Shown here piece after piece: positions 9,931 to 20,824 of a stretch of DNA of 20,824 nucleotides (the first letter of the stretch is position 1; every line of letters starts with the position of its first letter). This stretch comes from a virus. Its lineage: Duplodnaviria > Heunggongvirae > Uroviricota > Caudoviricetes. Below the pieces are notes generated by a model that did no database searches, was not told the origin of the DNA, and saw only the letters and a list, made by a program, of their open reading frames with translations. Both the position numbers and the translations under genes were made by a program. The stretch lies in IMG/VR virus record IMGVR_UViG_2529293076_000030. One strand, 5' to 3'.

Positions 9931-10211
9931 GGTGTTATTCCCGATGCTTTTTAAAGTTCGCAGAATCGTATGTGTAGAAAATTAAACAAACCCTAAACAA
10001 TGAGTTGAAATCTCATATTGTTAATATTTATTAATGTATGTCAGATGCGAAGGATCGTCACTGTATTCCCGGATTAACTATGTCCGCAGCCCTGACAGGG
10101 AAACTCCTCTGCGGGAGTGTCCGGGAATAATTAATAACGATGCACACAGGGTTTAGCGCGTACACGTATTGAACCGCCCCGGTTTTCCTGGAGAGTGTTT
10201 TATCTGTGAAC

Positions 10212-11099
10212 TCAGGCTGCCAGATCATCGTTTCTGATGGAAGCATAATAAGCTTTTTCTGCTTCTGCCGGAGGGATATGACCCAGCCTTCCCAGCAATC
10301 GTCGATTGTTATACCAGTCCACCCACGTGAGTGTGGCCAGTTCCACTTCTGCACGGTTTTTCCAGCTCTTACGGTGTATTACCTCCGCTTTGTAAAGACC
10401 ATTGATGCTCTCCGCCATCGCGTTGTCATACGAGTCACCTGTACTCCCTGTTGATGCCAGCAGTTTTGCTTCTTTTAGTCGCTCCGTATAGGCCAGTGAT
10501 ATATACTGAGAACCTTTATCACTGTGATGGACTGTGCCGGACGGCCGACGGGCCCACAACGCCTGCTCCAGTGCATCCAGCACGAATGTCGTTTCCATAG
10601 ACGATGAGACTCGCCACCCCACGATACATCCGGCAAACACATCAATGATGAACGCCACATAGACGAAGCCCTGCCATGTGCTGACGTAAGTAAAATCAGC
10701 CACCCACAGCTGGTCAGGACGTTCTGCCACGAACTGACGGTTTACGCGGTCGCCTGCGGAAACGGCTTTCCGGCTGACGGTAGTACGGACCTTTTTACCC
10801 CGGAGAACACCGGCAAGTCCCATAACCGCCATGAGGCGCGCCACTGTACATCTGGCCACCCTGATACCTTCGCGTAACAACTGGCGCCAGACTTTACGCA
10901 CACCGTACACCTGATGATTTTCATCGTATACGCGCTGTATCTCTCTCTTCAGCCAGTCATCGCGCTGAGCACGGGCACTGCGTTTATCAGGATGATGTCG
11001 CTGTTGCTGACAGTGGTAATACGTTGACGGGGCAATATGCAGTTCACTGCATACCGGTCCGACCCCGTACTGCTCACGCAGCTTATCCAGCAGCGGCAT
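10212..11099 (-). CDS. IS629-type transposase OrfB (DDE integrase-like catalytic domain), 295 aa from first ATG; normally expressed as an OrfAB fusion by -1 frameshift
   Basis: Contains DDE-type motifs (WVADFTY..., HSDKGSQY..., YDNAMAESINGLYKAE) characteristic of IS3-family transposases. In the -1 frame relative to orfA. Confidence 0.85.
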   Translation of the reverse strand: MPLLDKLREQYGVGPVCSELHIAPSTYYHCQQQRHHPDKRSARAQRDDWLKREIQRVYDENHQVYGVRKVWRQLLREGIRVARCTVARLMAVMGLAGVLRGKKVRTTVSRKAVSAGDRVNRQFVAERPDQLWVADFTYVSTWQGFVYVAFIIDVFAGCIVGWRVSSSMETTFVLDALEQALWARRPSGTVHHSDKGSQYISLAYTERLKEAKLLASTGSTGDSYDNAMAESINGLYKAEVIHRKSWKNRAEVELATLTWVDWYNNRRLLGRLGHIPPAEAEKAYYASIRNDDLAA

Positions 11100-11425
11100 T
11101 ATTTTTTCCAGAGGCGGTCGAACTCCGCCTTCGCAAAATAAGCGGAAGCCTGGCGAAGGATATCGTTACTGCGGCGCAGTTCACGATTTTCACGTTCCAG
11201 CTCTTTCAGACGCTGACGTTCAGCGGTGGTGAGTCCACCATCACCACTCCCGGTATCCCGCTCATGCTGACGAACCCACACACGCAGAGTCTCTGGTGTA
11301 CAGCCAATCTTTGGGGCAATGGAACAAATTGCCGCCCATTGTGAGTCATATTCGCCCTGACTTTCCAGAACCATACGAACTGCTCGTTGACGGACCTCGG
11401 GGGAAAAACGTGTATTTTTAGTCAT
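11099..11425 (-). CDS. IS629-type transposase OrfA (108 aa, HTH/leucine-zipper part)
   Basis: [57 protein letters not shown]... typical IS3-family OrfA. Ends ...WKK* at an A6 run that overlaps the orfB start. Confidence 0.85.
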
Positions 11426-11534
11426 CCTGTTTACCTCTTTCTCAGGGAGTTTAGTCTCCAGGATTCCCGGGGCGGTTCATATTGCATTATGCCAACGCCC
11501 CGGTGCTGACACGGAAGAAACCGGACGTGATGAT

Positions 11535-11945
11535 TTAGCGTGGAAAGATTTGTGTAGTGTTCTGAATGCTCTCAGTAAATAGTAATGAATTATCAAAGGC
11601 ATAGTAATATCTTTTATGTTCGTGGATATTTGTAACCCATCGGAAAACTCCTGCTTTAGCAAGATTTTCCCTGTATTGCTGAAATGTGATTTCTCTTGAT
11701 TTCAACCTATCATAGGACGTTTCTATAAGATGCGTATTTCTTGAGAATTTAACATTCACAACCTTTTTAAGTCCTTTTATTAACACAGTGTTATCGTTTT
11801 CTAACACAATGTGAATATTATCTGTGGCTAGATAGTAAATATAATGTGAGACATTGTGACGTTTTAGTTCAGAATAAAACAATTCACAGTTTAAATCTTT
11901 TCGCACTTGATCGAATATTTCTTTAAAAATGGCAACCTGAGCCAT
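11535..11945 (-). CDS. ybcV: YbcV-like protein (homologue of lambda ORF p78, DUF1398-type), 136 aa from the SD-preceded ATG; the ORF extends to 12068 if the upstream ATG is used
   Basis: [43 protein letters not shown]... Position between bor and cos as in lambda. SD GGAAGG precedes the ATG at 11945; none precedes the ATG at 12068. AT-rich. Confidence 0.6.
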
Positions 11946-12230
11946 TGGTAAAACCTTCCATGTGATACGAGGGCGCGTAGTTTGCATTATCGTTTTTATC
12001 GTTTCAATCTGGTCTGACCTCTTTGTGTTTTGTTGATGATTTATGTCAAATATTAGGAATGTTTTCAATTAATAGTATTGGTTGCGTAACAAAGTGCGGT
12101 CCTGCTGGCATTCTGGAGGGAAATACAACCGACAGATGTATGTAAGGCCAACGTGCTCAAATCTTCATACAGAAAGATTTGAAGTAATATTTTAACCGCT
12201 AGATGAAGAGCAAGCGCATGGAGCGACAAA

Positions 12231-12437
12231 ATGAATAAAGAACAATCTGCTGATGATCCCTCCGTGGATCTGATTCGTGTAAAAAATATGCTTAATAGCA
12301 CCATTTCTATGAGTTACCCTGATGTTGTAATTGCATGTATAGAACATAAGGTGTCTCTGGAAGCATTCAGGGCAATTGAGGCAGCGTTGGTGAAGCACGA
12401 TAATAATATGAAGGATTATTCCCTGGTGGTTGACTGA
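12231..12437 (+). CDS. ybcW: YbcW-like small protein (68 aa; homologue of lambda ORF p79)
   Basis: [70 protein letters not shown]-like GGAGCG upstream. Confidence 0.6.
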
Positions 12438-12601
12438 TCACCATAACTGCTAATCATTCAAACTACTTAACCTGTGACAGAGCCAACACGCAGTCTGTCA
12501 CTGTCAGGAAAGTGGTAAAACTGCAACTCAATTACTGCAATGCCCTCGTAATTAAGTGAATTTACAATATCGTCCTGTTCGGAGGGAAGAACGCGGGATG
12601 T

Positions 12602-12796
12602 TCATTCTTCATCACTTTTAATTGATGTATATGCTCTCTTTTCTGACGTTAGCCTCCGACGGCAGGCTTCAATGACCCAGGCTGAGAAATTTCCGGACCC
12701 TTTTTGATCAAGAGCGATGTTAATTTGTTCAATCATTTGGTTAGGAAAGCGGATGTTGCGGGTTGTTGTTCTGCGGGTTCTGTTCTTCGTTGACAT
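12602..12796 (-). CDS. ylcI: YlcI-like small protein (DUF3950-type), 64 aa
   Basis: MSTKNRTRRTTTRNIRFPNQMIEQINIALDQKGSGNFSAWVIEACRRRLTSEKRAYTSIKSDEE. Basic N-terminus; position just upstream of cos as in DLP12. Weak SD. Confidence 0.5.
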   Translation of the reverse strand: MSTKNRTRRTTTRNIRFPNQMIEQINIALDQKGSGNFSAWVIEACRRRLTSEKRAYTSIKSDEE

Positions 12797-12939
12797 GAGG
12801 TTGCCCCGTATTCAGTGTCGCTGATTTGTATTGTCTGAAGTTGTTTTTACGTTAAGTTGATGCGGATCAATTAATACGATACCTGCGTCATAATTGATTA
12901 TTTGACGTGGTTTGATGGCGTAGATGCACGTTGTGACAT

Positions 12940-13184
12940 GTAGATGATAATTATTATCATTTTGCGGGTCCTTTCCGGCGATCCGACAGGTTACGGGGCG
13001 GCGACCTCGCGGTTTTTCACTATTTATGAAAATTTTCCGGTTTAAGGCGTTTCCGTTCTTCTTCGCCGTAACCTAATGTTTTTATTTAAAACACCCCCTG
13101 AAAAGAAAGGAAACGACAGGTGCTGAAAACGGGCTTTTTGGCCTCTGTCGTTTCCTTTCTCTGTTTTTGTCCGTGGAATGAACA
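12940..13184 (+). other. cos: Lambda-type cos site: cosQ/cosN/cosB, with the 12-nt cohesive-end sequence GGGCGGCGACCT at 12996-13007
   Basis: ...CCGACAGGTTACG GGGCGGCGACCT CGCGG... read directly, matching the lambda right end/left end junction from memory. Downstream region up to Nu1 matches the lambda cosB region. Confidence 0.85.
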
Positions 13185-13704
13185 ATGGAAGTCAACAAAA
13201 AGCAGCTGGCTGACATTTTCGGCGCGAGTATCCGTACCATTCAGAACTGGCAGGAGCAGGGAATGCCCGTTCTGCGGGGTGGTGGCAAGGGTAATGAGGT
13301 ACTTTATGACTCTGCCGCCGCCATAAAATGGTATGCCGAAAGGGATGCTGAAATTGAGAACGAAAAGCTGCGCCGGGAAGTTGAAGAACTGAGGCAGGAC
13401 AGCGAGACAGATCTCCAGCCAGGGACTATTGAGTACGAACGCCATCGACTTACGCGTGCGCAGGCCGACGCACAGGAACTGAAGAATGCCAGAGACTCAG
13501 CTGAAGTGGTGGAAACCGCATTCTGTACTTTCGTGCTGTCGCGGATCGCAGGTGAAATTGCCAGTATTCTCGACGGGATCCCCCTGTCGGTGCAGCGGCG
13601 TTTTCCGGAACTGGAAAACCGACATGTTGATTTCCTGAAACGGGATATCATCAAAGCCATGAACAAAGCAGCCGCGCTGGATGAACTGATACCGGGGTTG
13701 CTGA

Positions 13705-13730
<26 letters not shown>
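13185..13730 (+). CDS. nu1: Terminase small subunit Nu1 (181 aa)
   Basis: MEVNKKQLADIFGASIRTIQNWQEQGMPVLRGGGKGNEVLYDSAAAIKWYAERDAEIENEKLRREVEEL... near-identical to lambda gpNu1. Confidence 0.95.
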
Positions 13731-17411
<3,681 letters not shown>

Positions 17412-17431
<20 letters not shown>

Positions 17432-18731
17432 TCTCCCGCATATTGCCAGCATGGCTTTTAATGAGCCGCTGATGCTTGAACCCGCCTATGCGCGGGTTTT
17501 CTTTTGTGCGCTTGCAGGCCAGCTTGGGATCAGCCGCCTGACGGATGCAGTATCCGGCGACAGCCTGACTGCCGGAGAGGCACCCGCGGCGCTGGCGTTA
17601 TCCGGTGATGATGACGGACCACGACAGGCCCGGAGTTATCAGGTCATGAACGGCATCGCCGTGCTGCCGGTGTCCGGTACGCTGGTCAGCCGGACGCGGG
17701 CGCTGCAGCCGTATTCGGGAATGACCGGTTACAACGGCATTATCGCCCGTCTGCAACAGGCTGCCAGCGATCCGATGGTGGACGGCATTCTGCTCGATAT
17801 GGACACACCGGGCGGGATGGTGGCGGGAGCATTTGACTGTGCTGACATCATCGCCCGTGTGCGAGACATAAAACCGGTATGGGCGCTGGCCAACGACATG
17901 AACTGCAGTGCAGGTCAGCTGCTTGCCAGCGCCGCCTCCCGGCGTCTGGTCACGCAGACCGCCCGGACAGGCTCCATCGGCGTCATGATGGCTCACAGTA
18001 ATTACGGTGCTGCCCTGGAGAAACAGGGCGTGGAAATCACGCTGATTTACAGCGGCAGCCATAAGGTGGATGGCAACCCCTACAGCCATCTACCGGGTGA
18101 TGTCCGGGAAACACTGCAGTCCCGGATGGATGCAACCCGCCGGATGTTTGCGCAGAAGGTGTCGGCATATACCGGCCTGTCCGTGCAGGCTGTGCTGGAT
18201 ACCGAGGCTGCAGTGTACAGCGGTCAGGAGGCCATTGATGCCGGACTGGCTGATGAACTTGTCAACAGCACCGATGCGATCACCGTTATGCGTGATGCAC
18301 TGGATGCACGTAAATCCCGTCTCTCAGGAGGGCGAATGACCAAAGAGACTCAATCAACAACTGTTTCAGCCACTGCTTCGCAGGCTGACGTTACTGGCGT
18401 GGTGCCAGCGACGGAGGGCGAAAACGCCAGCGCGGCGCAGCCGGACGTGAACGCGCAGATCACCGCTGCGGTTGCGGCAGAAAACAGCCGCATTATGGGG
18501 ATCCTCAACTGTGAGGAGGCTCACGGACGCGAAGAACAGGCCCGCGTGCTGGCAGAAACCCCCGGTATGACCGTGGAAACGGCCCGCCGCATTCTGGCCG
18601 CAGCACCACAGAGTGCACAGGCGCGCAGTGATACTGCGCTGGATCGTCTGATGCAGGGGGCACCGGCACCGCTGGCTGCAGGTAACCCGGCATCTGATGC
18701 CGTTAACGATTTGCTGAACACACCAGTGTAA
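17412..18731 (+). CDS. C: Head maturation protease/scaffold C (439 aa), GTG start at 17412
   Basis: TAELRNLPHIASMAFNEPLMLEPAYARVFFCALAGQLGIS... matches lambda gpC. The ORF-track 17277 start is an in-frame upstream extension overlapping B. Confidence 0.9.
18126..18731 (+). CDS. nu3: Scaffold protein Nu3 (201 aa), nested in-frame in the 3' third of C
   Basis: In-frame ATG at 18126 (MDATRRMFAQKV...) corresponds to the lambda Nu3 internal start, judged from the conserved offset relative to the C stop (lambda 5132..5737). Confidence 0.7.
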   Translation: MDATRRMFAQKVSAYTGLSVQAVLDTEAAVYSGQEAIDAGLADELVNSTDAITVMRDALDARKSRLSGGRMTKETQSTTVSATASQADVTGVVPATEGENASAAQPDVNAQITAAVAAENSRIMGILNCEEAHGREEQARVLAETPGMTVETARRILAAAPQSAQARSDTALDRLMQGAPAPLAAGNPASDAVNDLLNTPV

Positions 18732-18740
18732 GGGATGTTT

Positions 18741-19073
18741 ATGACGAGCAAAGAAACCTTTACCCATTACCAGCCGCTGGGCAACAGTGACCCGGCTCAT
18801 ACCGCAACCGCGCCCGGCGGATTGAGTGCGAAAGCGCCTGCAATGACCCCGCTGATGCTGGACACCTCCAGCCGTAAGCTGGTTGCGTGGGATGGCACCA
18901 CCGACGGTGCTGCCGTTGGCATTCTTGCGGTTGCTGCTGACCAGACCAGCACCACGCTGACGTTCTACAAGTCCGGCACGTTCCGTTATGAGGATGTGCT
19001 CTGGCCGGAGGCTGCCAGCGACGAGACGAAAAAACGGACCGCGTTTGCCGGAACGGCAATCAGCATCGTTTAA
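18741..19073 (+). CDS. D: Head decoration protein D (110 aa)
   Basis: [52 protein letters not shown]... matches lambda gpD. SD AAGGGA at 18730-18735. Confidence 0.92.
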
Positions 19074-19093
19074 CCTGACCCTTCATCACTAAA

Positions 19094-19115
19094 GGCCGCC
19101 TGTGCGGCTTTTTTT
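19094..19115 (+). other. Short GC hairpin (GGCCGC / GCGGC) followed by T7, between D and E
   Basis: Seen directly. Terminator-like, but it lies inside the late operon, so more likely an RNA stability or attenuation element. Confidence 0.3.
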
Positions 19116-19128
19116 ACGGGATTTTTTT

Positions 19129-20154
19129 ATGTCGATGTACACAACCGCCCAACTGCTGGCGGCAAATGAGCAGAAATTTAAGTTTGATCCGCTGTTTCTG
19201 CGTCTCTTTTTCCGTGAGAGCTATCCCTTCACCACGGAGAAAGTCTATCTCTCACAAATTCCGGGACTGGTAAACATGGCGCTGTACGTTTCGCCGATTG
19301 TTTCTGGTGAGGTTATCCGTTCCCGTGGCGGCTCCACCTCTGAATTTACGCCGGGATATGTCAAGCCGAAGCATGAAGTGAATCCGCAGATGACCCTGCG
19401 TCGCCTGCCGGATGAAGATCCGCAGAATCTGGCGGACCCGGCTTACCGCCGCCGTCGCATCATCATGCAGAACATGCGTGACGAAGAGCTGGCCATTGCT
19501 CAGGTCGAAGAGATGCAGGCAGTTTCTGCCGTGCTCAAGGGCAAATACACCATGACCGGTGAAGCCTTCGATCCGGTTGAGGTGGATATGGGCCGCAGTG
19601 CGGCGAACAACATCACGCAGTCCGGCGGCACGGAGTGGAGCAAGCGTGACAAGTCCACGTATGACCCGACCGACGATATCGAAGCCTACGCGCTGAACGC
19701 CAGCGGCGTGGTGAATATCATCGTGTTTGACCCGAAAGGCTGGGCGCTGTTCCGTTCCTTCAAAGCCGTCAGGGAGAAGCTGGATACCCGTCGCGGCTCT
19801 CATTCCGAACTGGAGACAGCGGTAAAAGACCTGGGCAAAGCGGTGTCTTATAAGGGAATGTATGGCGATGTGGCCATCGTCGTGTATTCCGGACAGTACG
19901 TGGAAAACGGCGTCAAAAAGAACTTCCTGCCGGACAACACGATGGTGCTGGGGAACACTCAGGCACGCGGTCTGCGCACCTATGGCTGCATTCAGGATGC
20001 GGACGCACAGCGCGAAGGCATTAACGCCTCTGCCCGTTACCCGAAAAACTGGGTGACCACCGGCGATCCGGCGCGTGAGTTCACCATGATTCAGTCAGCA
20101 CCGCTGATGCTGCTGGCTGACCCTGATGAGTTCGTGTCCGTACAACTGGCGTAA
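19129..20154 (+). CDS. E: Major capsid protein E (341 aa)
   Basis: MSMYTTAQLLAANEQKFKFDPLFLRLFFRESYPFTTEKVYLSQIPGLVNMALYVSPIVSGEVIR... near-identical to lambda gpE. The ORF-track 19102 start is an extension. Confidence 0.95.
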   Translation: MSMYTTAQLLAANEQKFKFDPLFLRLFFRESYPFTTEKVYLSQIPGLVNMALYVSPIVSGEVIRSRGGSTSEFTPGYVKPKHEVNPQMTLRRLPDEDPQNLADPAYRRRRIIMQNMRDEELAIAQVEEMQAVSAVLKGKYTMTGEAFDPVEVDMGRSAANNITQSGGTEWSKRDKSTYDPTDDIEAYALNASGVVNIIVFDPKGWALFRSFKAVREKLDTRRGSHSELETAVKDLGKAVSYKGMYGDVAIVVYSGQYVENGVKKNFLPDNTMVLGNTQARGLRTYGCIQDADAQREGINASARYPKNWVTTGDPAREFTMIQSAPLMLLADPDEFVSVQLA

Positions 20155-20156
20155 TC

Positions 20157-20181
20157 ATGGCCCTTCGGGGCCATTGTTTTT
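20157..20181 (+). other. Hairpin with UUCG tetraloop (ATGGCCC-TTCG-GGGCCAT) followed by TGTTTTT, between E and FI
   Basis: Seen directly: perfect 7-bp stem and the very stable UUCG loop. Confidence 0.35.
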
Positions 20182-20195
20182 CTGTGGAGGAGTCC

Positions 20196-20594
20196 ATGAC
20201 GAAAGATGAACTGATTGCCCGTCTCCGCTCGCTGGGTGAACAACTGAACCGTGATGTCAGCCTGACGGGGACGAAAGAAGAACTGGCGCTCCGTGTGGCA
20301 GAGCTGGAAGAGGAGCTTGATGACACGGATGAAACTGCCGGTCAGGACACCCCTCTCAGCCGGGAAAATGTGCTGACCGGACATGAAAATGAGGTGGGAT
20401 CAGCGCAGCCGGATACCGTGATTCTGGATACGTCTGAACTGGTCACGGTCGTGGCACTGGTGAAGCTGCATACTGATGCACTTCACGTCACGCGGGATGA
20501 ACCTGTGGCATTTGTGCTGCCGGGAACGGCGTTTCGTGTCTCTGCCGGTGTGGCAGCCGAAATGACAGAGCGCGGCCTGGCCAGAATGCAATAA
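20196..20594 (+). CDS. FI: DNA-packaging protein FI (132 aa)
   Basis: MTKDELIARLRSLGEQLNRDVSLTGTKEELALRVAELEEELDDTDETAGQDTPLSRENVLTGHENEVG... matches lambda gpFI. The ORF-track 20157 start is an extension. Confidence 0.9.
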   Translation: MTKDELIARLRSLGEQLNRDVSLTGTKEELALRVAELEEELDDTDETAGQDTPLSRENVLTGHENEVGSAQPDTVILDTSELVTVVALVKLHTDALHVTRDEPVAFVLPGTAFRVSAGVAAEMTERGLARMQ

Positions 20595-20605
20595 CGGGAG
20601 GCGCT

Positions 20606-20824
20606 GTGGCTGATTTCGATAACCTGTTCGATGCTGCCATTGCCCGCGCCGATGAAACGATACGGGGGTACATGGGAACGTCAGCCACCATGACATCCGG
20701 TGAGCGGTCCGGCGCAGTAATACGTGGTGTTTTTGATGACCCTGAAAATATCAGCTATGCCGGACAGGGCGTGCGCGTTGAAGGCTCCAGCCCGTCCCTG
20801 TTTGTCCGGACTGATGATGTGCGG
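20606..20824 (+). CDS. FII: Head-tail connector FII, 5' partial (GTG start; runs off the window end)
   Basis: GTG at 20606 then ADFDNLFDAAIARADETIRGYMGTSATMTSGERSGAVIRGVFDDPENISYAGQGVRVEGSSPSLFVRTDDV... matches lambda gpFII N-terminus. Confidence 0.85.
   Translation, partial: MADFDNLFDAAIARADETIRGYMGTSATMTSGERSGAVIRGVFDDPENISYAGQGVRVEGSSPSLFVRTDDVR

Follow-up and report, generated by a model that had tools for sequence, protein, structure and literature searches.

Three small genes, ybcV, ybcW and ylcI, lie at positions 11535-12796 of the window (the whole 20,824-nucleotide stretch of phage DNA that was analyzed). ybcV, the equivalent of lambda p78, occupies 11535..11945 on the minus strand, encodes a DUF1398 protein of 136 aa and is oriented against the phage late operon. 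ybcW, the equivalent of lambda p79, is found at 12231..12437 on the plus strand, which is that of the late operon, and encodes an acidic protein of 68 aa (pI 4.9). ylcI (12602..12796, minus strand) encodes a basic DUF3950 protein of 64 aa (pI 10.5), points away from cos and opposes the late operon. A divergent control region of 285 bp (11946..12230) separates ybcV from ybcW, and a convergent spacer of 164 bp (12438..12601) separates ybcW from ylcI. To the right of ylcI are cosQ (GGGTCCT, 12966-12972, plus strand, with the coordinate transferred from the phage 434 annotation) and cosN (GGGCGGCGACCT, 12996-13007, plus strand, identified by sequence), which together form the right end of the lambda map, followed by the cosB R-site repeats (CGTTTCC, 13048-13160, found by repeat search) and by Nu1, which starts at 13185.

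The window segment is 100% identical to many E. coli O157:H7 genomes, in which the three genes carry the RefSeq names ybcV (DUF1398), ybcW and ylcI (YlcI/YnfO family), and the corresponding PHROGs families are 413, 657 and 949, respectively. The coordinates of the three ORFs were exactly those of the initial annotation, and the RefSeq, Pfam and PHROGs assignments agreed with it, as did the divergent arrangement of ybcV (minus) and ybcW (plus). The segment also matches positions 47,007-48,502 of phage lambda with 98.1% identity, which is the p78/p79 position from bor to cos. Lambda p78/p79 and ybcV-ybcW-ylcI of the DLP12 prophage of E. coli K-12 are the same genes in the same order, orientation and bor-cos position, and amino acid identities to the lambda copies are 98.5% for YbcV, 100% for YbcW (68/68 residues of lambdap79) and 98.4% for YlcI. 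The lambda p78/p79 position that had been claimed for the genes is thus upheld by the lambda match, but direct adjacency to bor is not, since an IS629/IS1203-type element of the IS3 family (10170..11479, minus strand, 1310 bp) intervenes between bor and ybcV, 55 bp downstream of the ybcV stop codon. This element contains HTH_Tnp_1 and rve ORFs and an ALIL frameshift pseudoknot (120.9 bits), is bounded by terminal repeats TGAACCGCCCC and a TAT duplication of 3 bp, and is absent from the corresponding point of lambda. It belongs to the context and lies outside the gene set of ybcV, ybcW and ylcI; its insertion may change expression locally.

The AT-richness noted initially was confirmed, with 38.1% GC over 11535-12796 (ybcV 32.1%, ybcW 39.6%) compared with 52.6-54.2% in Nu1/A and 57.0% over 13185-20824 on the packaging and head side, and within the region the AT content is highest in the ybcV-ybcW pair. 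All three genes occur together in 1359 of 5426 complete E. coli genomes. They are already known, conserved and ordinary lambda-type right-end genes, carried as annotated genes by thousands of E. coli genomes, and ybcV and ybcW are present in the lambda annotation as well.

The divergent ybcV-ybcW pair

The start of ybcV was assigned to the ATG at 11945 because of the conserved N-terminus (all YbcV/YdfO/YcgX homologues start with M[AD]QV there) and the GGAAGG Shine-Dalgarno sequence. The TTG at 12068, on which the 177-aa lambdap78 model is based, was rejected, as it has no Shine-Dalgarno sequence and no support from homologues, and phage Chlobot carries a frameshift in the N-terminal extension of this model; the extension, 41 codons long in the p78 entry of the lambda reference, is not supported by comparison. 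The shared control region of 160 bp described in the initial annotation needs the TTG start and has to be replaced by a ybcV-ybcW spacer of 285 bp (11946-12230). The corrected start and spacer are a useful outcome of the analysis.

YbcV matches Pfam PF07166 (DUF1398) over the entire profile (positions 1-119 of 119) with 157 bits against a cut-off of 22 (3e-46), and matches PDB entry 2HH8 (YdfO) with a phmmer E-value of 1.6e-70 (2hh8_A). When its AF2 model (pLDDT 87) was superposed on 2HH8, the TM score was 0.85-0.90 and the rmsd 1.7 A. YbcV, a basic DUF1398 protein of 16 kDa, has the YdfO fold, which consists of two alpha-alpha-beta-beta-beta repeats. A fold search of the PDB and BFVD returned no relative beyond YdfO, all other matches having an rmsd above 7 A; the structure and remote-homology comparison proposed initially therefore recovered the YdfO fold for YbcV but no informative fold relatives in these two databases. 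Lenient Pfam, NCBIfam and PADLOC scans of YbcV, YbcW and YlcI gave only noise beyond the assigned families. One published claim about YdfO may reflect a confusion with yfdO. This claim, that over-expression of YdfO protects from oxidative stress (PMC4077768), was set aside as a suspected mix-up.

The control region contains a PdhR box (ATCTGGTCTGACCTCTT, 12007-12023) identical in sequence to the K-12 site, and a repeat search detected a 9-bp tandem (TTATCGTTT x2, 11987-12004) and an inverted repeat (12157-12182). The DLP12 site of K-12 was identified by SELEX, and RT-qPCR gave mRNA levels 10- and 9-fold lower in a pdhR mutant (PMC7660256). Disturbed H-NS silencing induced the K-12/BL21 copies of ybcV-ybcW more than 1000-fold (PMC7827196). 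All of the available expression data were obtained with K-12/BL21 prophages or lambda rather than with the present O157 prophage. In E. coli K-12, the control region of ybcV-ybcW is silenced by H-NS and activated by PdhR. A simple scan, which performed no better than chance, found no consensus sigma-70 promoter for ybcV, ybcW or ylcI. Scanning of the ybcW-ylcI spacer (12438..12601) yielded no intrinsic terminator, folding of this spacer was no better than that of shuffles (z = -0.78), and an Rfam scan of 11400-13250 gave no RNA family, only noise at the cosB hairpin. In K-12, ybcW-ylcI has been listed as a convergent excludon by RNA-seq (PMC12288877).

Comparison with phage 434 separates the pair from ylcI. 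In 434, bor is followed by a 288-bp filler and then by ylcI, the filler replacing the ybcV-ybcW segment of about 1.3 kb, and the homology of the window with 434 breaks at 12585, 17 bp past the ylcI stop. Both lambda p78 and p79 have been listed as dispensable (PMC10695390). With the bor/lom-type lambdoid morons as defined by Hendrix and Juhala, ybcV-ybcW shares presence/absence polymorphism between otherwise collinear phages, deviant base composition, a regulated promoter region, dispensability and, for ybcV, an orientation opposing the late operon. Unlike those morons, ybcW is co-oriented with the late operon and no flanking terminator was found by scan. As to a promoter and terminator of its own, no consensus elements were found here by scan, and the K-12/BL21 copies show PdhR-dependent, H-NS-sensitive transcription (PMC7660256, PMC7827196). 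We propose that ybcV-ybcW would be a dispensable AT-rich cassette, a moron in the sense of Hendrix, with its own divergent control region, in which ybcV, being leftward and opposed to the late operon, could be expressed from the prophage. The initial description of all three genes as moron-like accessory genes thus fits ybcV-ybcW, which is absent from 434, AT-rich, regulated and dispensable, but not ylcI. Grouping of ylcI with the other two did not hold, since ylcI is kept at the cos/terminase junction in 434, Stx phages and other lambdoids that lack both, and is predicted to be a DNA-binding regulator rather than cargo. ylcI would accordingly be assigned to the cos-proximal junction, outside the cassette.

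YbcW and the Vulcan defence

The functions of the three genes had been described as unknown, which is outdated for ybcW; for YbcV, a homologue has a solved structure. The protein lambdap79 has been reported as an activator of the Vulcan NADase defence in a single preprint of September 2026 (bioRxiv 10.64898/2026.09.04.749371), in which the trigger was lost through recombination with Qin. Such a loss fits the map of Qin, where ynfO and ydfO are adjacent without ybcW. ybcW is preceded by a GGAG Shine-Dalgarno sequence and lies on the late strand, so that Q-dependent late transcription would have to traverse it in lytic growth. CRISPRi knock-down of ybcW had an effect despite the dispensability of the gene, which in our reading of PMC10695390 is the outcome expected of polarity on the late transcript. 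The small acidic YbcW is dispensable for the phage and would activate the Vulcan NADase abortive-infection system, and Vulcan-type NADase systems are expected to sense an O157 prophage that encodes this same protein.

YbcW could also be a phage counter-defence or other host-takeover protein and be detected by Vulcan for that reason, as it is a small, acidic and dispensable protein whose gene is on the lytic-cycle strand, an abortive-infection system senses it, and anti-defence proteins account for several of the known triggers of such systems. We consider this role unlikely, because YbcW has no Pfam family and no significant PDB or PADLOC match, it is very narrowly distributed (40 phage records in total, each a lambdoid coliphage or lambda itself) and there is no experimental hint of a target.

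ylcI and the junction with the packaging genes

YlcI matches Pfam PF13132 (DUF3950) with 71.4 bits (cut-off 25, 5e-20) and NCBIfam NF041551 with 36.6 bits (cut-off 30), and carries the family motif NFSAWVIEAC (NFS and V-I-E-A motifs). The sequence follows a beta-alpha-alpha pattern in which the turn reads G-x-x-N-F-S, and residues I15, R16, F37 and V41 are invariant. In the AF2 model, for which pLDDT is only 69, an extended segment (12-18) is followed by a helix (19-32), the turn GSGN (33-36) and a second helix (37-61), so that the strand-helix-turn-helix layout with a Gly-containing turn of ribbon-helix-helix (RHH) proteins is present. No strand was called in the monomer model, as expected, since RHH proteins form their sheet only as dimers. 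The top Foldseek matches were nearly all RHH proteins (StnY/CopG, NikR, HicB, MazE9, Arc, ParD, CopA and MatP), with an rmsd of 1.6-2.0 A over about 40 residues and TM scores of up to 0.74 on the target, but with E-values of at least 0.88. Profile comparisons pointed to the same class in the correct register, although weakly: the CopG-family entry 9kkd in the PDB (E=1.1), a HicB-like PHROG (E=0.016) and, by hhalign, a hand-made alignment of six RHH proteins (P=0.0018, probability 15%). A sequence search against the PDB gave nothing significant, and no single sequence or structure test gave YlcI a significant E-value for the RHH superfamily. The structure and remote-homology comparison of YlcI hence produced an RHH-like layout and RHH top matches, but no significant E-value.

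With RHH repressors (CopG, Arc/Mnt of P22, the NikR N-domain, ParD and the HicB C-domain), YlcI shares the predicted layout, size, basic N-terminal arm and Gly-containing turn before helix B, and its best structural matches are all of the RHH class; unlike established RHH repressors, it has no statistically significant sequence or structure match. The tests being concordant and individually weak, YlcI is probably a small CopG/Arc-type RHH protein, an assignment that is moderately supported. We infer that YlcI binds DNA, regulates its own gene and links the expression of ylcI and ybcV. A YlcI dimer would most likely bind DNA via the N-terminal strand (conserved K/R-x-I-R-F-P) and would repress its own leftward promoter, hence also leftward transcription running antisense through ybcW towards ybcV; YlcI is probably an autoregulating repressor. 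Taken together, the right-end region is read here as a ybcV-ybcW moron cassette, with a Vulcan-activating YbcW, plus a junction gene, ylcI, encoding a predicted RHH autorepressor, and we assign this reading a probability of about 0.6. No description of DUF3950 as RHH was found in the literature and database sources searched. The only new leads obtained are the RHH assignment and the counter-oriented position of DUF3950 genes, which is strikingly conserved and extends to satellites; together they offer a hypothesis on one y-gene family that can be tested at little cost.

An inverted repeat (ATCAATTAATACG-N7-CGTCATAATTGAT, 12866..12898), located 70-100 bp upstream of the ylcI start and conserved in lambda, 434, DLP12, Qin and Chlobot, was considered as a candidate operator only. 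Its assignment as the YlcI operator is weak and was not upheld, the left arm being lost in the more distant L206. Point 'mutations' of ylcI in PMC12844343 and PMC4330922 were judged uninformative and may be due to mis-mapping of paralogues.

The position of DUF3950 genes is shared among phages with different packaging modules. In lambda-type (Nu1/A), other GpA-type and HNH/Terminase_2-type phages alike, they are found in opposite orientation between the lysis genes and terminase. In two divergent family members, DUF3950 is fused to the N-terminal HTH of the Terminase_2 small subunit, both domains scoring above the Pfam gathering scores; these two fusions and many other DUF3950 genes are located in PICI-type satellites that parasitise lambdoid phages. 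The satellite genes adjoin alpA and int, away from packaging genes, and the inverted repeats upstream of them are only slightly longer than those of shuffles (6.6 vs 5.3 nt). Tentatively, and with considerable doubt, DUF3950 (YlcI/YnfO) could represent an unrecognised class of small RHH regulators that mark and control the lambdoid lysis-to-packaging junction, always opposing the late operon, with satellite relatives between alpA/int and primase, some of them fused to the small-terminase HTH, and with a role in the control of late/packaging transcription or in helper-satellite cross-talk.

The same distribution might suggest that YlcI is a DNA-packaging or cos-region accessory factor, or a player in satellite packaging conflicts, instead of a transcription regulator: DUF3950 lies directly beside terminase genes or cos in three types of packaging module, is fused to the Terminase_2 HTH and occurs in PICI-type satellites. 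This proposal appears distinctly unlikely. The strand of ylcI opposes the late/packaging operon, which implies no co-expression with terminase; nothing beyond cosQ-cosN-cosB, terminase and IHF is required for the packaging of lambda in vitro or of cosmids; the satellite copies are next to alpA/int and not to packaging genes; and the lysis-terminase junction is also a common site of cargo genes, which makes position alone weak evidence.

The Qin prophage carries paralogues of two of the genes, ynfO and ydfO, which are likewise located next to cos and nohA. Sequence identity is 79% between YdfO and YbcV and, over 64 aligned residues, 81% between YnfO and YlcI. In Qin, ynfO-ydfO forms a tandem operon without ybcW in between, and YnfO is longer (77 aa) with a different C-terminal tail. 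YlcI and YbcV might on this basis be a regulator/effector or toxin-antitoxin-like pair, comprising an RHH antitoxin with a variable C-terminal tail and a DUF1398 toxin, that was split in lambda-type phages by the inserted ybcW. In Qin, Chlobot, E. albertii and others, a DUF1398 gene follows the 77-aa YnfO form after 42-57 bp on the same strand; YnfO and YdfO are joined in frame in a fusion protein, P0442, with 761 member sequences; and, as in RHH antitoxins, a conserved RHH core is combined with a C-terminal tail that differs among haplotypes. This pairing seems improbable to us all the same, because chromosomal DUF1398 genes occur without an RHH neighbour (ycgX next to bluR; Klebsiella and Salmonella loci), DUF3950 occurs alone in phage 434, Stx phages and satellites, ybcV and ylcI are 656 bp apart here with the opposing ybcW between them, and no toxicity of YbcV or YdfO was found in the literature searched. 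ybcV also has its own PdhR-dependent control region (PMC7660256). In the window, ylcI and ybcV do not form an adjacent, co-oriented two-gene operon; each is widespread without the other, and their adjacency is confined to Qin-type prophages.

Conservation of the three frames

Conservation of the genes as intact frames in related prophages, on which the initial annotation depended, was borne out. Intact frames of ybcV, ybcW and ylcI were found in 124, 107 and 104 related loci, respectively, that is in almost all relatives, and broken copies come from error-prone contaminant contigs. Two of the three large protein searches were dominated by error-ridden copies of lambda control DNA and yielded no diversity, and a genome scan for DUF1398 returned mostly lambda contamination within unrelated assemblies. 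For clearly diverged alleles, pairwise dN/dS values were 0.15-0.39 for ybcV and 0.10-0.51 for ylcI, and the pairwise value for ybcW was 0.41, all well below 1. As judged from these allele comparisons, the three frames are under purifying selection. Their shortness, AT-richness and lack of consensus promoters by simple scan, together with the cryptic-prophage-like setting with an IS element, might suggest spurious frames or genes in decay within AT-rich spacer DNA, but such a reading is already contradicted by the strong family matches, the more than 100 intact loci per gene, these dN/dS values, the solved structure of a homologue and the published transcription and phenotype data. The lambda reference annotation omits ylcI, although an intact copy is present at lambda 48112-48303 and the gene is under selection.

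Gene content and conservation between bor and cos

The window was found to carry, on its + strand, the late region of a lambda-type prophage (Q, holin, lysozyme, Rz/Rz1, cos, Nu1, A and head genes), and its segment 9600-13300 is 100% identical to many E. coli O157:H7 chromosomes, an insertion sequence excepted. ORF calls, RefSeq and the lambda alignment agreed with the initial annotation on the coordinates, names and bor-cos position of three small genes and on the divergent orientation of ybcV and ybcW. These genes are ybcV (11535-11945, - strand), ybcW (12231-12437, + strand) and ylcI (12602-12796, - strand), annotated by RefSeq in the identical O157:H7 genomes as DUF1398 domain-containing protein, protein YbcW and YlcI/YnfO family protein, respectively. 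They are followed by cosQ (GGGTCCT, 12966-12972), cosN (GGGCGGCGACCT, 12996-13007), the cosB repeats and Nu1 from 13185. The segment 11500-13010 matches phage lambda 47,007-48,502 at 98.1% identity, with amino acid identities of 98.5% for YbcV (lambdap78), 100% for YbcW (lambdap79) and 98.4% for YlcI, whose intact DUF3950 homologue in lambda lies at 48112-48303 (- strand), adjoining cosQ. The lambda record NC_001416.1 annotates nothing past p79 and so has no ylcI, and the neighbouring ybcW, too, is without a feature in J02459. The region is AT-rich as claimed, with a GC content of 38.1% over 11535-12796 and 32.1% in ybcV versus 52.6-54.2% in Nu1/A and 57.0% over 13185-20824.

Intact frames were recovered from the related loci fetched (124 copies of ybcV, 107 of ybcW and 104 of ylcI), the few broken copies being nanopore-derived contaminant contigs or alignments not beginning at residue 1. 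Pairwise Nei-Gojobori dN/dS against diverged alleles was 0.15-0.39 for ybcV (alleles with 44-79% amino acid identity), 0.10-0.51 for most full-length ylcI alleles (up to 0.71 for a few pairs that were short or very distant) and 0.41 for ybcW, which has one usefully diverged allele only (79% identity). Because the frames are intact in relatives and there is published evidence of expression from the copies in K-12/BL21 and lambda, the three ORFs are not regarded as unexpressed or decayed. Of 5426 complete E. coli genomes, 1359 have all three genes and 4086 have parts of the segment. Lambda right-end DNA also appears in contig or "plasmid" records assigned to unrelated organisms (e.g., S. aureus, Acinetobacter, Arcanobacterium, Brevibacillus, Kitasatospora, Stenotrophomonas and "Campylobacter phage CJLB-4"), either as the whole 48.5-kb lambda or as ~3.5-kb pieces, which we take to be the nanopore control strand, and error-ridden lambda clusters are present by the thousand in protein databases.

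In phage 434, bor is followed directly by ylcI and cos, and homology between the window and 434 stops at 9987 on the left and restarts at 12585, 17 bp past the ylcI stop. ybcV-ybcW is therefore a replaceable cassette and ylcI part of a cos-proximal block, so that the proposal of moron-like accessory genes suits the cassette and does not extend to ylcI, which is kept in 434. The order ylcI (64 aa), opposed ybcW and ybcV is shared by lambda, DLP12 and O157; Qin, Chlobot, ev099 and E. albertii have a 77-aa ynfO with a DUF1398 gene 42-57 bp later and without ybcW; 434 has ylcI by itself; and Stx phages have a lone 75-aa DUF3950 gene, divergent from the HNH gene and the genes of both terminase subunits. 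A 233-aa in-frame YnfO-YdfO fusion (761 member sequences), with Trp in place of the ynfO stop, was also found; the tandem ynfO-ydfO operon therefore became one ORF in some E. coli lineages.

The genes had further been described as lying next to bor. The order stands, but an IS629/IS1203-type IS3 element of 1310 bp (10170-11479; terminal repeats TGAACCGCCCC, 3-bp TAT duplication) separates bor from ybcV. It holds an ALIL frameshift pseudoknot (11028-11144, 120.9 bits) and lies where late transcription has to pass. O157 strain 28RC1 has a 95%-identical copy 92 bp further left in opposite orientation; the short bor-ybcV spacer was therefore hit independently.

YlcI as a predicted ribbon-helix-helix protein

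The three genes themselves are known, YbcV belonging to DUF1398 and YlcI to DUF3950, and the sole lead beyond existing knowledge is DUF3950 as a ribbon-helix-helix (RHH) family, a superfamily in which YlcI probably belongs. The family is small, with 141 clusters (50% identity) in 1.84 billion proteins, many of them lambda sequencing-error variants. The true divergent members have in common K/R-x-I-R-F-P, a helix, a G-x-x-N-F-S turn and a second helix A-W-V-x-E/D-A-C, a layout that, at the level of sequence, is the CopG/Arc-type RHH pattern. The AF2 model (pLDDT 69) has an extended segment, a helix at 19-32, a tight turn and a helix at 37-61, and its best Foldseek matches in the PDB were nearly all RHH proteins (StnY/CopG, NikR, HicB, MazE9, Arc, ParD, CopA and MatP), with rmsd 1.6-2.0 A over ~40 residues but E-values of at least 0.88. 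The family profile matched CopG-family 9kkd in the PDB weakly (E=1.1), a HicB-like family was hit in PHROGs (E=0.016), and hhalign against a hand-made set of six RHH sequences gave the expected register (P=0.0018, probability 15%). These tests are individually weak and concordant, and together suggest, with a probability of roughly 0.8, that YlcI is an RHH protein.

The most natural role of YlcI would be that of a dimer repressing its own leftward promoter. No such promoter was definable by promoter scan; the sole candidate operator upstream of ylcI, the inverted repeat 12866-12898, is kept in close relatives and not in a more distant one. In the curated phage 434 record, + strand matches to the CII-binding consensus (TTGYN6TTGY) are marked inside and just upstream of ylcI (2672-2685 and 2747-2760 in the coordinates of the 434 locus L003), the first of which (TTGCGGGTTGTTGT) is conserved in the window at 12756-12769; they may be chance pattern matches.

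DUF3950 genes in phages and satellites

In every phage context examined, the DUF3950 gene separates the lysis genes from the terminase genes and has the opposite orientation to both, namely beside lambda Nu1/A, in other GpA-type modules (lysozyme, Rz, DUF3950, small genes, GpA) and in HNH/Terminase_2 modules. A divergent branch is counter-oriented in PICI-type satellites (28 non-redundant IMG/VR loci, AlpA in 17), where it separates primases from alpA, int or antirepressor-like genes. Two members (P0376 and P0316) are fused to the N-terminal HTH of the Terminase_2 small subunit, both Pfam cut-offs being exceeded, and P0376 is encoded in an island interrupting a lambdoid prophage late region just past the small-terminase gene. 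A literature search found no paper tying DUF3950 to the RHH fold or giving it a function. We consider it unlikely that DUF3950 forms a class of RHH regulators of such junctions and satellites; its position could merely be a permissive site for cargo. A role of YlcI as a packaging factor is disfavoured, since the strand of ylcI and the known function of lambda cos both speak against it.

In satellite loci L087/L088 (5641-7881), the integrase end meets the prophage small-terminase gene after a 93-aa ORF, and the large terminase, next in related Stx phages, is absent there. This layout and the P0376 island resemble the published "helper-embedded PICI" (PMC10111431). In satellites such as L087 (4590-5363) and L091 (4714-5103), a single DUF3950 gene or a pair of them runs opposite to the remainder of the island. 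Upstream regions in L087 contain the palindromes GGTACGTACC (twice, around TATAAT) and GTTTAACAC (four times), and satellite loci L143-L177 have ACACCT/AGGTGT or AACACTT/AAGTGTT inverted repeats ~90-100 bp and ~17 bp upstream of DUF3950 starts. Compared with shuffles, the satellite upstream repeats showed a small enrichment (6.6 vs 5.3 nt), for which shared ancestry may account.

YbcV, YbcW and their spacer

YbcV is a DUF1398 protein (157 bits, Pfam) close to YdfO (NMR structure 2HH8); its AF2 model (pLDDT 87) superposes on 2HH8 with TM 0.85-0.90 and has two alpha-alpha-beta-beta-beta repeats. Nothing similar besides YdfO was found in the PDB and BFVD by fold search, searches with Pfam, NCBIfam and defence models gave no further match, and no evidence supporting the labels "head protein" (PHROG 413) and "putative envelope protein" was found. 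Distant DUF1398 genes are solitary in chromosomes (ycgX beside bluR; Klebsiella and Salmonella loci), which speaks against a toxin dependent on a cognate antitoxin, and YlcI and YbcV as a toxin-antitoxin pair also fail the co-occurrence test.

The 160-bp control region initially assigned to ybcV and ybcW requires the 177-aa p78 model of lambda with a TTG start at 12068. The spacer is instead 285 bp, because an M[AD]QV N-terminus occupies the position of ATG 11945 in every YbcV/YdfO/YcgX homologue, Pfam and PHROG profile starts coincide with this ATG, the Shine-Dalgarno GGAAGG precedes it while none precedes TTG 12068, and in phage Chlobot the upstream p78 "extension" is out of frame. The lambda reference p78 thus bears an unsupported 41-codon N-terminal extension. 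The 285-bp spacer includes a 17-bp PdhR box (12007-12023), identical to the K-12 site, through which the long p78 ORF would translate. In a K-12 pdhR mutant, ybcV mRNA was down 10-fold and ybcW 8.9-fold, with a PdhR SELEX site between both genes (PMC7660256); both are up >1000-fold once T4 MotB disturbs H-NS silencing (PMC7827196), and ybcW/ylcI are listed as a convergent excludon by RNA-seq (PMC12288877).

YbcW (68 aa, pI 4.9) is acidic, lacks a Pfam family, is encoded on the late-operon strand and was found in lambdoid coliphage records only (n=40). In a CRISPRi screen, targeting of p79 reduced plating, though p79 is known to be dispensable (PMC10695390); our interpretation is polarity on the late transcript. 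The description of ybcW as of unknown function no longer applies, as the YbcW of the window is identical to p79, a published activator of the NIR-NADase Vulcan, an abortive-infection defence. In a September 2026 preprint (bioRxiv 10.64898/2026.09.04.749371), this conclusion was drawn because lambdap79 was deleted in all seven lambda-vir escapers and co-expression of Vulcan and p79 was toxic. By the same preprint, lambda evades Vulcan through loss of p79 by recombination with Qin, a route explained by the Qin map, which has ynfO-ydfO without ybcW.
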